Positions 12,248 to 12,705 of a stretch of DNA of 64,000 nt are shown here, piece after piece. Both the position numbers and the translations under genes were made by a program. The number at the start of each line of letters is the position of its first letter. Position 1 is the stretch's first letter. The notes below the pieces were generated by a model that saw only the letters and a list, made by a program, of their open reading frames with translations, did not search any database and was not told the DNA's origin. Source of the DNA: Patescibacteria group bacterium (GTDB lineage: Bacteria > Patescibacteriota > Patescibacteriia > JAQUQO01); NCBI GenBank assembly GCA_028716045.1, contig JAQUQO010000001.1, forward strand, positions 725,176 to 789,175, read 5' to 3'.

Positions 12248-12705
12248 ATAATTATTTCTCTTTTATTAGTCTTACCCGATTTTATCTTAATTTGCAAGTG
12301 TCGCCCGCCCTTAAATATCTTTTTTACTTTATCCGCCCATTCAATTACCACCACCGAATTCTTATCTCCCAGATATTCGCCGAGGCCGATGTCCAGTAAA
12401 TCCCGCTCGTTATTTAGGCGATAAGCGTCAACGTGTACGAAATTTTGAATTTTGAATTTCCCTCGACCTGAGCTCGGGACGAAGGTTGAATTTTGAATTT
12501 TATAGACCTTCATTAAAACAAAAGTCGGGCTGGTGATATTTTTTTTAATGCCAAGACCCTTGGCCAATCCTTTGGTAAAAACCGTCTTCCCGCTGCCCAA
12601 ATCTCCTGTCAAACCTAAAACTTCCCCGCCCCTAAGGCCGGCGGCGATTTTCTTCCCCAAGACGATTGTTTCTCTCTCGCTTTTAGTAATATATTTTTTC
12701 ACCAT
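12229..12705 (-). CDS. tsaE: tRNA threonylcarbamoyladenosine biosynthesis ATPase TsaE, carrying an in-frame repeat insertion
   Basis: Walker A GDLGSGKT and the SPTFVL...VHVDAYRL pattern of TsaE/YjeE. There is an extra KIQNSTFVPSSGRGKFKIQNF segment encoded by the TTGAATTTTGAATT repeats. Confidence 0.8.
   Translation of the reverse strand: MVKKYITKSERETIVLGKKIAAGLRGGEVLGLTGDLGSGKTVFTKGLAKGLGIKKNITSPTFVLMKVYKIQNSTFVPSSGRGKFKIQNFVHVDAYRLNNERDLLDIGLGEYLGDKNSVVVIEWADKVKKIFKGGRHLQIKIKSGKTNKREIIIWKKKK

Follow-up and report, generated by a model that had tools for sequence, protein, structure and literature searches.

A dispersed 27-nucleotide imperfect palindrome set in a heptanucleotide array within the tsaE gene of a Patescibacteria group bacterium

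The closest known parallel to the sequence described here is provided by the cyanobacterial SDR elements, which are set in heptameric repeats. These elements were reportedly described in 2008 by Elhai, Kato, Cousins, Lindblad and Costa, within the STRR heptameric tandem repeats of Nostocaceae. In the 2008 work of Elhai et al., SDRs are said to be dispersed, near-identical sequences of 21-27 nt with hairpin potential, typically embedded in tandem heptanucleotide arrays and occurring in nested or tandem arrangements. To our knowledge, elements of this size (about 27 nt) have been argued for only in Nostocaceae, as SDRs, and no enzyme is known, since their description in 2008, to mobilise them. 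Short palindromes also occur elsewhere. The palindromic elements of Rickettsia (RPE), not known outside this genus, include RPE-1, of about 100-150 nt, and the REP-like RPE-4 and RPE-6, tagged with a terminal CGTC. AT-rich sequence, coding regions among it, is also invaded by short GC-rich palindromes in yeast mitochondria (GC clusters) and in Magnusiomyces (byp elements), and these can have matching short flanking sequences. The ribosome skips byps between matching take-off and landing codons.

The SDR work of Elhai et al. 2008 is cited in PMC4390886, PMC5861425 and PMC3116915, and PMC5861425 reports SDRs as confined to Nostocaceae. The heptanucleotide repeats of the Nostoc tRNA-Leu intron fold into a hairpin in which non-repeat elements occur as indels (PMC3488679). 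REPs are marked by an unpaired GTAG or CGTC tetranucleotide at one end of the stem-loop, and intragenic REPs are reported often in replication and repair genes; MITEs are 70-300 bp long, with terminal inverted repeats of 15-30 bp derived from IS (PMC3733652). In the literature on palindromic or in-frame elements of Patescibacteria, or on the peptides encoded, we found no description of the 27-nt sequence (27-mer) that is the subject of this report.

The insert in tsaE and its empty sites

The insert interrupts a gene that lies directly downstream of tsaD (12709-13734, minus strand) in the window, that is, the whole 64,000-nt stretch of DNA analysed (Table 1). The product of this 158-aa ORF is 100% identical to a TsaE-named protein of a Patescibacteria MAG (P0001; Pfam PF02367), and its PDB matches are the TsaE structures 5MVR and 6N9A. 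An earlier, sequence-only reading had noticed direct repeats around a palindrome at this place. The repeats are exact: TTGAATTTTGAATTT occurs twice on the plus strand, at 12445-12459 and 12486-12500, with a spacing of 41 nt. The palindrome between them (CCCTCGACCTGAGCTCGGGACGAAGG, 12460-12485) is imperfect, its 16-nt arms being 81% complementary. Tandem Repeats Finder (TRF) analysis indicates that the repeated sequence extends beyond the two 15-mers, as tandem heptanucleotide units reading TGAATTT on the plus strand and AAATTCA on the coding strand, with 100% matches at period 7 in the low-coordinate array. Both half-arrays are in the same register; together they make four units, with the core in the middle, where two units meet. 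The boundary of the core is ambiguous by one base, a T/A common to core and flank.

Table 1. Positions of the features in the window
Feature	Position	Strand	Basis and remarks
tsaE host gene, 158 aa	12229-12705	-	ORF list; 100% match to P0001; PF02367
27-nt palindromic core	12460-12486	-	coding strand ACCTTCGTCCCGAGCTCAGGTCGAGGG, plus strand CCCTCGACCTGAGCTCGGGACGAAGGT
Heptanucleotide half-array, low-coordinate side	12441-12459	-	2.7 TGAATTT units, encodes KFKIQN; TRF period 7
Heptanucleotide half-array, high-coordinate side	12487-12501	-	about 2.3 TGAATTT units, encodes KIQNS; TRF
Core-less inverted heptamer arrays, (AAATTCA)n ... (TGAATTT)n	28302-28369	.	pattern matches, sequence, TRF

The palindromic core occurs once in the window and in none of the shuffled sequences; no further copy of the 27-mer was found in the 64 kb with up to 8 mismatches allowed. 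With two mismatches or fewer allowed, the 15-mer matches the window at 7 places; the shuffle mean is 1.9 (0 of 100 shuffles reach 7). The sole other site in the window with the TGAATTT unit is the pair of inverted, core-less arrays in the spacer between the tRNA genes at 28225-28296 and 28374-28447, which shows that the unit is a repeat specific to this genome rather than a peculiarity of tsaE. For the spacer arrays a hairpin of -15.2 and -17.8 kcal/mol is predicted (z = -3.5 and -4.1), and none of 200 shuffles attained such values. For the 27-mer hairpin the predictions are -9.5 and -11.3 kcal/mol as RNA (z between -1.1 and -1.9) and -3.4 kcal/mol as DNA (z about 0), no better than shuffled sequence. 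A U-rich tract follows this hairpin on the antisense strand, and the 27-mer has a 13-13 dyad around GAGCTC.

Read in the tsaE frame, the 27-mer encodes TFVPSSGRG (TsaE residues 73-81), part of a segment translated as KIQNSTFVPSSGRGKFKIQNF between SPTF and HVDAYRL. The reading frame differs between the two 15-mer copies, one giving KIQNS and the other KFKIQ. The frame stays open and continuous through the 27-mer, with HVDAYRL downstream in the same frame, in agreement with the earlier proposal of a tolerated mini-insertion. In an AF2 model of the protein (mean pLDDT 89), the insert is predicted to form a low-confidence coil between strands 65-69 and 88-93, residues 74-77 and 80-83 scoring a pLDDT of less than 50. 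The best match among solved structures, B. subtilis TsaE (5MVR), shows a 14-residue alignment gap exactly at the insert, and loop length is highly variable among 118 orthologues (17-95 aa). These data support an in-frame, tolerated insertion in a loop, and a TsaE with a disordered 9-residue loop should remain functional.

Comparison with other tsaE genes defined the extent of the insert. The closest orthologues (P0002-P0005, 65-79% identical to the window protein in alignment A1) keep KIKNS..KIKN, which the repeats encode, and lack exactly 9 aa; at the DNA level exactly 27 nt are missing from the P0002 and P0013 genes. The latter contains one uninterrupted four-unit (TGAATTT) array, AAATTTTGAATTTTGAATTT being joined directly to TGAATTTTGAATTTTATA. 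The 20 nt on either side are identical in window and P0013, and the difference is the 27-nt insert CCCTCGACCTGAGCTCGGGACGAAGGT, with nothing duplicated. The orthologue alignment that the sequence-only reading had suggested thus bears out its placement of an insertion in the TsaE loop ahead of HVDAYRL, as does the 5MVR gap. Two other parts of that reading fail on the P0013 gene: the TTGAATTTTGAATTT flanks, taken to belong to the inserted unit, are present there without the core, and the supposed target-site-duplication-like structure is contradicted by an empty site that already has all four units.

Further filled and empty sites were found. Two other tsaE genes have the core in the same loop as the window, one of them inverted: P0016 carries a variant of the core in this loop in opposite orientation, and P0018 has 29 nt identical to the window despite a protein identity of only 53%. 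TopA orthologues form a graded series, from no array (a loop of 17-19 aa) through an array only to an array with core; the heptamer arrays, too, are insertions into loops of proteins. Exactly one 34-nt core-plus-heptamer unit separates two contigs that are identical over about 700 nt. No near-identical genomes were found that differ in the presence of a single 27-mer copy.

Dispersed copies and the heptanucleotide layer

Genome and metagenome scans combined gave at least 154 unique copies matching the search pattern, in 58 genomic and at least 120 metagenomic stretches. The wide search proposed in the earlier reading therefore established the core as a repeated element; of that reading as a whole, the in-frame loop insertion and the repeated element stand, and the flanking repeats as a target-site duplication do not. 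As the searches required 21 exact bases, conservation of the 27-mer is partly a product of the search; among the matches listed, 90 of 111 unique metagenome copies carry the identical sequence. The 27-mer is present in independent NCBI, JGI, ENA and Logan assemblies and in dozens of genes. Its loci span 31-64% GC. Most copies among the matches listed are in Patescibacteria, the others in MAGs of Planctomycetes, Elusimicrobia, Dehalococcoidia and Aminicenantia. Copy number per genome is low (1-6 in the genome scan). Most copies are solitary; tandem copies are direct, lie inside ORFs and are separated by one 7-nt unit (34-nt period). In variant 2, CT to TC and AG to GA swaps keep one wobble and one mismatch, with 21 of the 27 positions fixed by the search pattern. 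A half-site Hamming scan of 545 kb of loci found no decayed copies (up to 5 mismatches) beyond the known variants, a scarcity that fits precise loss or recent spread. The IMG/VR viral contigs gave no exact-pattern match, and in PLSDB plasmids and GenBank phages the matches (E of 1 or worse) covered at most about two-thirds of a 33-nt query. No cyanobacterial genome with the core is among the 58 genome stretches (species-level scan). Two loci with (CCCCAGT)n arrays, L085 and L183, were considered as cyanobacterial and rejected: they have no HIP1 sites and their ORF content appears Patescibacteria-like.

Open frames of at least 120 codons harbour 126 of the 154 copies (82%; among the matches listed). 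By Pfam, the hosts are housekeeping genes of unrelated families and include class I aaRS, GyrA, TopA, PolX, PolA, a MurC-like ligase and PheT, as well as UvrD, GatA, a RadA-like protein, HerA, PGK and trigger factor. The in-frame copies listed are strongly biased in orientation (117 versus 9), and the bias persists among those listed without heptamer flanks (36 versus 5; p = 1e-4 against 0.4). All three phases are used (61, 32 and 24 copies among the matches listed), indicating that it is the DNA that is conserved and not the peptide. At orthologous TopA and GyrA sites the 27-mer is unchanged while its flanks diverge. Copies at the same site are seen across classes, for TopA in L010 and L065 and for GyrA in L015, L031 and L047. 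Such same-site copies in different classes could reflect inheritance instead of independent insertion; likewise, exact identity across phyla could result from purifying selection on a functional site instead of recent movement.

Matching 7-mers stand on both sides in 94 of 149 copies, against 14 expected with random pairing of flanks, and two units on each side (2+2) is the commonest arrangement among heptamer-flanked copies (both among the matches listed). Each genome has its own unit, which is kept across loci and different cores. In 1.36 Mb of loci there are 250 period-7 arrays, with a modal size of 4 units, versus 0 in shuffled sequence; periods 4, 5, 6, 8 and 9 account for only 4-22 arrays each, so that period 7 exceeds every other period more than 10-fold. 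Outside Patescibacteria the copies lack flanking repeats, and those in high-GC genomes lie in unique sequence, with no arrays. One locus, L049, has a 14-nt A-B / A-B direct repeat at its 27-mer copy. The core is a dispersed element found across phyla; separate from it, the heptanucleotide arrays of the flanks form a layer that extends genome-wide.

Possible origins of the insert

The comparisons show a clean 27-nt indel together with the dispersal, exact conservation, array context and orientation bias of the core. We favour, with a probability of roughly 0.55, the reading that 12460-12486 is a copy of a tiny, non-coding, imperfectly palindromic dispersed element that was inserted as a discrete 27-nt unit. 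It would be among the smallest apparently mobile DNA elements known. The 27-mer would have entered tsaE without target duplication, between two units in the middle of a four-unit array that was already present and probably encodes the tip of a surface beta-hairpin. Being 9 codons long and, in its usual orientation, free of stops in any frame, it would simply be translated as a disordered 9-residue loop. We infer mobility of the 27-mer, an enzyme acting on it and the strandedness of the intermediate: a trans-acting enzyme would recognise the conserved asymmetric hairpin or the sequence, then cut and rejoin precisely, in a mode that may be likened to that of REP, SDR or IS200-type single-strand "peel and paste" elements. 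Pairing of same-unit arrays, by annealing or recombination, might aid this movement, and the genome-specific arrays of about four units would be the preferred landing site. Beside the copies (58 loci, flanks of about 8-14 kb) there is no transposase, reverse transcriptase or other recurrent neighbour gene; the genes that recur are only host-gene families and syntenic housekeeping genes. Since the neighbourhoods examined cover only about 8-14 kb, a trans-acting gene may lie elsewhere in the genome. A bolder version holds that the 27-mer, identical across phyla, is the smallest actively and horizontally spreading element, that it inserts and excises precisely, without duplication, in the middle of arrays of about four units, and that a genome-specific process, shared with the STRR/SDR system of heterocystous cyanobacteria, places these arrays in protein loops. 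This version is tentative, and we place it some way below an even chance.

Another candidate is a classical miniature transposon, the whole unit or the core having been inserted by a staggered-cut transposase and the TTGAATTTTGAATTT copies being its target-site duplication. The direct repeats around the core at tsaE and in 94 of 149 listed copies, and the 14-nt repeat of L049, are what such an element would leave, and the single heptamer shared between tandem cores is expected if re-insertion duplicates 7 nt. The tsaE frame would however be shifted by an event of 26 + 15 = 41 nt, or of 27 + 7 = 34 nt. The unduplicated P0013 site and the copies outside Patescibacteria that lack flanking repeats point the same way, as does a search of 545 kb of loci for separated palindrome half-sites or terminal inverted repeats around a larger element, which found none; we regard this origin as improbable. 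A better case, though still an unlikely one, can be made for a functional cis-element under selection and not selfish DNA, spread by gene transfer and then retained: a terminator on the antisense strand, a signal for mRNA processing or stability, a pause in translation, or a site of protein binding or recombination. Identity in 90 of 111 listed metagenome copies and across phyla is consistent with it, as are the constancy at orthologous TopA and GyrA sites amid divergent flanks and the orientation bias among the matches listed, with or without heptamer flanks. The antisense U-rich tract beyond the hairpin would suit a terminator, and the dyad around GAGCTC resembles a recombinase site. Yet it is not called in the terminator scan, and it folds with ordinary energy. 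Copies are few (one in the 64-kb window), they fall in scattered loops of unrelated proteins, and close orthologues do without them; moreover, the orientation bias is due in part to TGA stops that appear when the element is reversed, one in phase 0 of the core and one per TGAxTTT unit.

It is also conceivable that no dedicated machinery is involved. The core would then spread between same-unit arrays by homologous or single-strand annealing recombination (gene conversion), for instance after uptake of environmental DNA, and the arrays would arise by replication slippage. A clean indel exactly between identical array halves, without duplication, fits this account, as does the 34-nt unit that distinguishes two otherwise identical contigs; the unit being genome-specific, all arrays within one genome can pair. 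The homology arms, however, are only about 14 nt long, and copies in high-GC genomes sit in unique sequence. Slippage leaves unexplained why period 7 alone is enriched and why arrays stop at about 4 units, and how the same core reached different phyla, whose arrays differ. We consider this account doubtful, ranking it between the two preceding ones. Very unlikely, and the least credible of all, is a native, locally evolved low-complexity TsaE loop or mis-assembly within simple repeats. The wide range of TsaE loop lengths (17-95 aa in 118 orthologues) leaves room for it, and any stop-free 27-nt insertion keeps the frame; against it stand the recurrence of the 27-mer in independent assemblies (NCBI, JGI, ENA and Logan), its 100% DNA identity in tsaE genes with a protein identity of only 53%, and regularities of flank and orientation that are far from chance.

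Several other candidates were tried and rejected. No known RNA family is found at gathering thresholds, and a permissive scan of 12380-12560 gives only noise (E = 4-9). An intrinsic terminator is not called by the scan, the z-scores are unremarkable and the copies lie inside genes with the U-rich side antisense; nor is an antisense promoter called at the 27-mer. The core has no partial match to the 16S or tRNAs of the window. An SRP or RNase P fragment was also considered as the origin of the 27-mer and dropped. CRISPR arrays, with repeats of 24-48 nt and unique spacers of similar size, are unlike copies that are mostly solitary or 7 nt apart in tandem. Finally, a Y1 transposase gene lies 1.6 kb from the tsaE gene of L006, which has a different palindrome, and no copy of that palindrome flanks the transposase.

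The preferred reading, a discrete dispersed element, has several consequences. Part of the "lineage-specific insertions" in housekeeping proteins of Patescibacteria would be repeat DNA and not adaptive protein features. The heptamer period, which is not a multiple of three, and the 34-nt core-plus-unit steps make a potential frameshift switch. PSSRAQVEG, TFVPSSGRG and LRPELRSRE may serve as markers of the 27-mer in protein databases. If the bolder version is true, Patescibacteria, regarded as repeat-poor, have a system of two layers by which surface loops of essential proteins are remodelled, and the mobilising machinery, or a machinery-free mechanism, would be new. An exact 27-nt unit with clean filled and empty sites, an orientation rule, a landing site and a presence in many phyla makes enzyme searches feasible and assays easy.

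Comparison with described small repeats

The 27-mer is unlike MITEs: it is 27 nt in total and shows no target duplication relative to P0013, and no separated half-sites that might be the ends of a parent IS were found in 545 kb of loci. With RPEs it shares the in-frame position of a palindromic repeat in housekeeping genes and translation into a surface peptide, 126 of the 154 copies among the matches listed being in frame in conserved genes and their translation being presumed. It differs in being 27 nt long, untagged and present in many phyla, and heptamer arrays are not known from the anatomy of RPEs. Unlike byps, the 27-mer needs no bypass, the tsaE frame being continuous through it with HVDAYRL in the same frame; translational bypass was also rejected on the ground that the 41-nt spacing of the repeats is not a multiple of three, so a hop would break the frame.

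The REP/REPIN class, mobilised by RAYT (IS200/IS605-type Y1) transposases, shares several traits with the 27-mer. REPs are non-autonomous, imperfect palindromes of 20-40 nt with conserved mismatches, precise boundaries, no target duplication and a bias in strand or orientation. As with intragenic REPs, the hosts of the 27-mer include replication and repair proteins (TopA, GyrA, PolA, PolX, UvrD and RadA-like). However, the 27-mer has no GTAG, and its CGTC lies within the coding-strand stem (CCTTCGTCCC) and not unpaired at the end. Its arrays are direct, with a 34-nt period and no inverted doublets; copies are few per genome and mostly intragenic, and no RAYT was seen near any of them (58 loci).

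It is the SDRs of Nostocaceae that the 27-mer most resembles, in its 27-nt size class, dispersed near-identical copies, predicted hairpin potential, heptamer arrays and tandem arrangements. The range of 21-27 nt with many near-identical copies accommodates the 27-mer with its at least 154 unique copies, and 94 of 149 copies among the matches listed are embedded in heptameric repeats. In 200 kb of Nostoc punctiforme pNPUN01 there are 13 period-7 arrays of 3.5-5 units versus 0-1 for periods 5, 6, 8 and 9, and one of these arrays is interrupted by a 29-nt GC-rich insert. The inverted arrays in the tRNA spacer of the window look similar to the repeats of the Nostoc tRNA-Leu intron. The sequence of the 27-mer is probably distinct from those of SDR1-8, and none of the 58 genome stretches of the species-level scan is cyanobacterial. 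Whereas SDRs are placed in a single family, the 27-mer occurs with an identical core in Patescibacteria and at least five other phyla; its length is a multiple of three, and 82% of its copies (among the matches listed) lie inside protein-coding genes, in frame.

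The tsaE insert and its empty site

The tsaE frame, whose product is 100% identical to a Patescibacteria MAG protein named TsaE (PF02367), contains two exact copies of TTGAATTTTGAATTT at a spacing of 41 nt and, between them, the imperfect palindrome CCCTCGACCTGAGCTCGGGACGAAGG, confirming the direct repeats around a GC palindrome described in the sequence-only reading. Neither the pair nor the palindrome is expected by chance in the window. As 41 is not a multiple of three, the two copies lie in different frames (KIQNS and KFKIQ). On either side, the core is bordered by repeats of a heptanucleotide that reads TGAATTT on the plus strand and AAATTCA on the coding strand.

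The window protein was aligned with its 29 best relatives (alignment A1). The four closest (P0002-P0005, 65-79% identity) keep KIKNS..KIKN and lack exactly nine residues, TFVPSSGRG; the P0002 gene lacks 27 nt relative to the window. In the tsaE gene of relative P0013, ...GAAAATTTTGAATTTTGAATTT|TGAATTTTGAATTTTATA... forms a four-unit array without interruption; 20 nt per side are identical in the two genes, and the window carries the 27-mer CCCTCGACCTGAGCTCGGGACGAAGGT between them. The two genes thus differ by a clean insertion or deletion of 27 nt with zero duplication, the TTGAATTTTGAATTT repeats representing the left and right halves of an array that already existed. The earlier proposal of an in-frame insertion within tsaE thus holds in substance, the orthologue alignment bearing out the nine extra residues. 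The role it gave to the repeats, that of a target-site duplication, does not: P0013 already has four units, nothing is duplicated in the 27-nt difference, and a transposon-plus-duplication event of 26 + 15 = 41 nt would have destroyed the frame.

Coordinates of features in the window and in fetched loci (L handles)
Feature	Coordinates	Strand	Remark
tsaE host ORF	window 12229-12705	minus	158 aa; directly downstream of tsaD
TTGAATTTTGAATTT, two exact copies	window 12445-12459 and 12486-12500		in tsaE
tsaD	window 12709-13734	minus	directly upstream of tsaE
16S rRNA gene, then tRNA genes and protein-coding ORFs	window 25470-30624		
Perfect 20-nt GC palindrome CCTGCCTGCCGGCAGGCAGG	window 28108-28127		just downstream of ORF 27513-28091
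Core-less (AAATTCA)n, then inverted (TGAATTT)n	window 28302-28369		spacer of tRNA genes 28225-28296 and 28374-28447
P0018 tsaE with second palindrome	L001:350-862		
IS200/IS605-type Y1 transposase gene (PF01797)	L006:7738-8412		1.6 kb from tsaE
GyrA with intein (PF14890) and core	L031:674-4711		Parcubacteria MAG
Tandem cores, two copies	L064:3419-3475		
Tandem cores, three copies	L188:~2733-2830	reverse	
Period-7 arrays, examples	L079:4090-4127; L085:5349-5454		
Other GC-rich cores between matching heptamers	L008:379-440; L012:7014; L013:6113; L041:1178; L042:1283; L051:4229; L077:4800; L179:1725		~20-40 nt
Interrupted (ATTACGA)n array	L189:35512-35568		plasmid pNPUN01

B. subtilis TsaE (5MVR) leaves a 14-residue gap at the insert position. 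An AlphaFold model built on a 30-sequence alignment (pLDDT 89, pTM 0.86, confident overall) joins strands 65-69 and 88-93 by a coil of residues 70-87, in which pLDDT drops under 50 at 74-77 and 80-83; this places the element at the predicted tip of a surface hairpin; TsaE with the insert is probably still functional. Across 118 orthologues, the two loop halves co-vary as direct repeats (KIQN..KIQN, KIEN..KIEN, EIRD..EIRN), as expected of a nucleotide-level repeat and not of selection for an antiparallel hairpin. Further inserts occur in 56 of the 118, and their lengths peak at +7, +9 and +10-11 residues; at the DNA level, those that were read are other GC-rich palindromes.

The P0018 gene has a second, unrelated palindrome, GGCGTCTCGACCCGAAAATTTATTATTCGGGTCTCGCC, and more GC-rich sequence beside the 27-nt core; its 44-residue loop looks like stacked insertions at one site. 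Seven-residue inserts such as CLAGRQA and CLSGRQE in the loops of P0044 and P0031 could be encoded by a palindrome of the CCTGCCTGCCGGCAGGCAGG type, which may represent a second family of small in-frame cores. The tsaE gene near the Y1 transposase gene has a different loop palindrome, CCCCGAAGCAAAGCAAGCTTGCTACGGGG, and no second copy of it was found near that transposase. No 23S rRNA gene is present anywhere in the 64-kb window.

Dispersal of the 27-nt core

P0018 shares 53% protein identity with the window TsaE, yet the genes have 29 identical nt in the same loop; P0016 carries a close variant, CCCTCGACTCGAGCTCGGGACGAGAG, there in opposite orientation. The wide search for the GC core, suggested with the sequence-only reading, yielded dispersed copies in genomes and metagenomes. 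An exact pattern fixing 21 of 27 bases gave 58 stretches in genomes (one per species) and at least 120 on metagenome contigs, or at least 154 unique copies once duplicates were removed. Most genome stretches are from Patescibacteria (Saccharibacteria, Yanofsky-, Levy-, Curtiss-, Woese- and Magasanikbacteria, Parcubacteria group), the others from MAGs labelled Planctomycetales or Pirellulales, Elusimicrobia, Dehalococcoidia, Aminicenantia, Stahlbacteria and Gammaproteobacteria. Since core-bearing loci span 31 to 64% GC, this spread is not only binning error; single labels may be wrong. Among the matches listed, 90 of 111 unique metagenome copies are the identical 27-mer, the pattern itself having fixed 21 of its positions. 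The exact pattern had no match in IMG/VR, plasmids and phages gave no near-full-length match, and the species-level genome scan found no core in cyanobacteria. An Rfam scan of the core region returned nothing, and the searchable literature held no description of the core.

Open frames of at least 120 codons hold 126 of 154 copies among the matches listed; there the sense strand is ACCTTCGTCCCGAGCTCAGGTCGAGGG in 117, read as PSSRAQVEG (61), LRPELRSRE (32) or TFVPSSGRG (24). With all three phases in use, it is the DNA that is conserved, not a peptide. By Pfam, the hosts are housekeeping proteins of unrelated families: class I aminoacyl-tRNA synthetases, GyrA, TopA, Pol X, Pol I, Mur ligase and PheT, and also UvrD, GatA-type amidase, a RadA-like protein, HerA, PGK, trigger factor, GT4 glycosyltransferase and others. 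The intein-containing GyrA of L031 carries its core away from the intein, at the same site as in L015, L047, L118 and L129.

Tandem cores have a 34-nt period (27 + 7), so that a run of three spans 102 nt, each copy being read in a different phase. L064 and L188, 100% identical over ~700 nt, differ by one such core-plus-heptamer unit, and only the three-copy form retains the long frame; the difference reflects either a genuine length polymorphism that shifts the frame or a collapse during assembly.

Heptamer arrays

The arrays, too, are insertions. The TopA loop flanked by REGEAI and FHEIT, compared in 116 relatives, has a plain state of 17-19 aa (e.g., LGLKNPKRIV); a subset carries heptamer-encoded peptides there (KIKNEKLKIKN, NSKFEIRNSKQIQNSKFKIQK, others), and in two sequences PSSRAQVEG is added midway in the heptamer-encoded array. 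The 1.36 Mb of fetched loci (L009-L188) contain 250 period-7 arrays of at least 24 nt versus 0 after shuffling, and 22, 5, 14, 15 and 4 arrays of periods 4, 5, 6, 8 and 9, making period 7 more than 10 times commoner than any other period tested. Two thirds of the unique period-7 arrays (147/217) lie in long open frames; the modal size is four units. Many different units occur, including (CCCCAGT)n, known as the cyanobacterial STRR1 unit. Among other GC-rich cores between matching heptamers, those of L051 and L179 both have CCCCTCGACTCGGCTCGGGGCAGGC, which is related to the main core but has diverged from it, and L005 and L077 have a ...AAGCTCAGGAT... type core in common.

The core-less inverted arrays in the tRNA spacer have the same unit as tsaE and form a strong 19-20-bp AT hairpin (z = -3.5 and -4.1).

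Proposed movement of the core and known systems

The core acts as a tiny non-autonomous element that moves or recombines: the identical sequence recurs in unrelated genes and phyla, sites with and without it have exact boundaries and show no duplication, the tsaE site also occurs with an inverted copy, cores can stand in tandem, and decayed copies are few (in 545 kb, none with up to 5 mismatches apart from known variants). We favor movement as a discrete 27-nt unit by a trans-acting enzyme that would recognize the asymmetric palindrome, by analogy with REP, SDR or IS200-type systems. Pairing in the palindrome is broken by a single central A·A or T·T mismatch and a single C·A mismatch, and includes one wobble; the variant family keeps this pattern at swapped positions, as read from copies whose search fixed 21/27 positions. 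The unit would insert preferentially into heptamer arrays, possibly because of slipped or single-stranded structures there; alternatively, loops may simply tolerate nine more residues. No enzyme moving the core was identified, and no gene recurs beside the copies besides hosts and syntenic neighbors.

Two other accounts were weighed. Retention of the core by selection, as a cis-element, is unlikely. Open frames alone do not prove selection, since any stop-free 27-nt insert keeps the frame, and the orientation bias is partly explained by the TGA that the rare orientation has in one core phase and in each unit of the form TGAxTTT. Where matching heptamers are missing from the flanks, copies are still oriented 36 to 5 among the matches listed (p = 1e-4, against 0.4 expected from the core's own stop). 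The RNA hairpin (-9.5 kcal/mol on the plus strand, -11.3 on the coding strand) does not exceed shuffled sequence in stability (z = -1.1 to -1.9), the DNA hairpin reaches only -3.4 kcal/mol, and a terminator scan made no call on the core. Spread through recombination between like heptamer arrays is less probable still.

In the core flanks, among the matches listed, the 7-mers before and after the core agree (at most 1 mismatch) in 94 of 149 copies versus 14 expected with flanks paired at random, and the commonest flanked form has two units per side. Flanked cores sit at a constant unit boundary (...TTT|core|TGA...). The unit varies between genomes and is common to different loci, even different cores, within one: one Levyibacteriota MAG has a TTGAACT-type unit in each of its six elements, a Parcubacteria MAG has TGGTTTT at its two loci, and a Saccharibacteria MAG has TAATTTT with the variant core. 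Heptamer flanks are absent at cores in high-GC, non-Patescibacteria genomes; together with the core-less arrays, these flank-less cores make core and arrays separable.

The closest parallel to core plus arrays is the SDR/STRR system of Nostocaceae. Elhai et al. 2008 reportedly described SDRs as dispersed hairpin-forming elements of 21-27 nt that often lie within tandem heptameric repeats, and proposed them to be the smallest mobile elements. A 200-kb portion of the Nostoc punctiforme plasmid pNPUN01 has 13 period-7 arrays of 3.5-5 units versus 0-1 for neighboring periods; within one of them, (ATTACGA)n, sits a GC-rich insert of 29 nt, TTAGCGTAGCGGTAGCGACGCAGGAGCGT, which occurs once in that portion and may be one of the published SDR elements. 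The tRNA-spacer hairpin of the window is similar to one formed by heptanucleotide repeats in the Nostoc tRNA-Leu intron, where such repeats occur with non-repeat indels (PMC3488679). The SDR work is cited in PMC4390886, PMC5861425 and PMC3116915. SDRs are reported as confined to Nostocaceae (PMC5861425), whereas the 27-nt core crosses phyla, probably differs in sequence and is mainly intragenic and in frame. Classification as a MITE was rejected on size, terminal repeats and target duplication, and as a bypass element because the frame is continuous through the insert. Genome-specific heptanucleotide arrays and a cross-phylum 27-nt core make up a two-layer repeat system that, to our knowledge and in the literature searched, was previously undescribed outside cyanobacteria. 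Unlike REPs, the core has no GTAG or CGTC tag, and neither inverted doublets nor a RAYT was seen at the loci read; like intragenic REPs (PMC3733652), it prefers replication/repair genes and, like Rickettsia RPEs, it is inserted in-frame in housekeeping genes.
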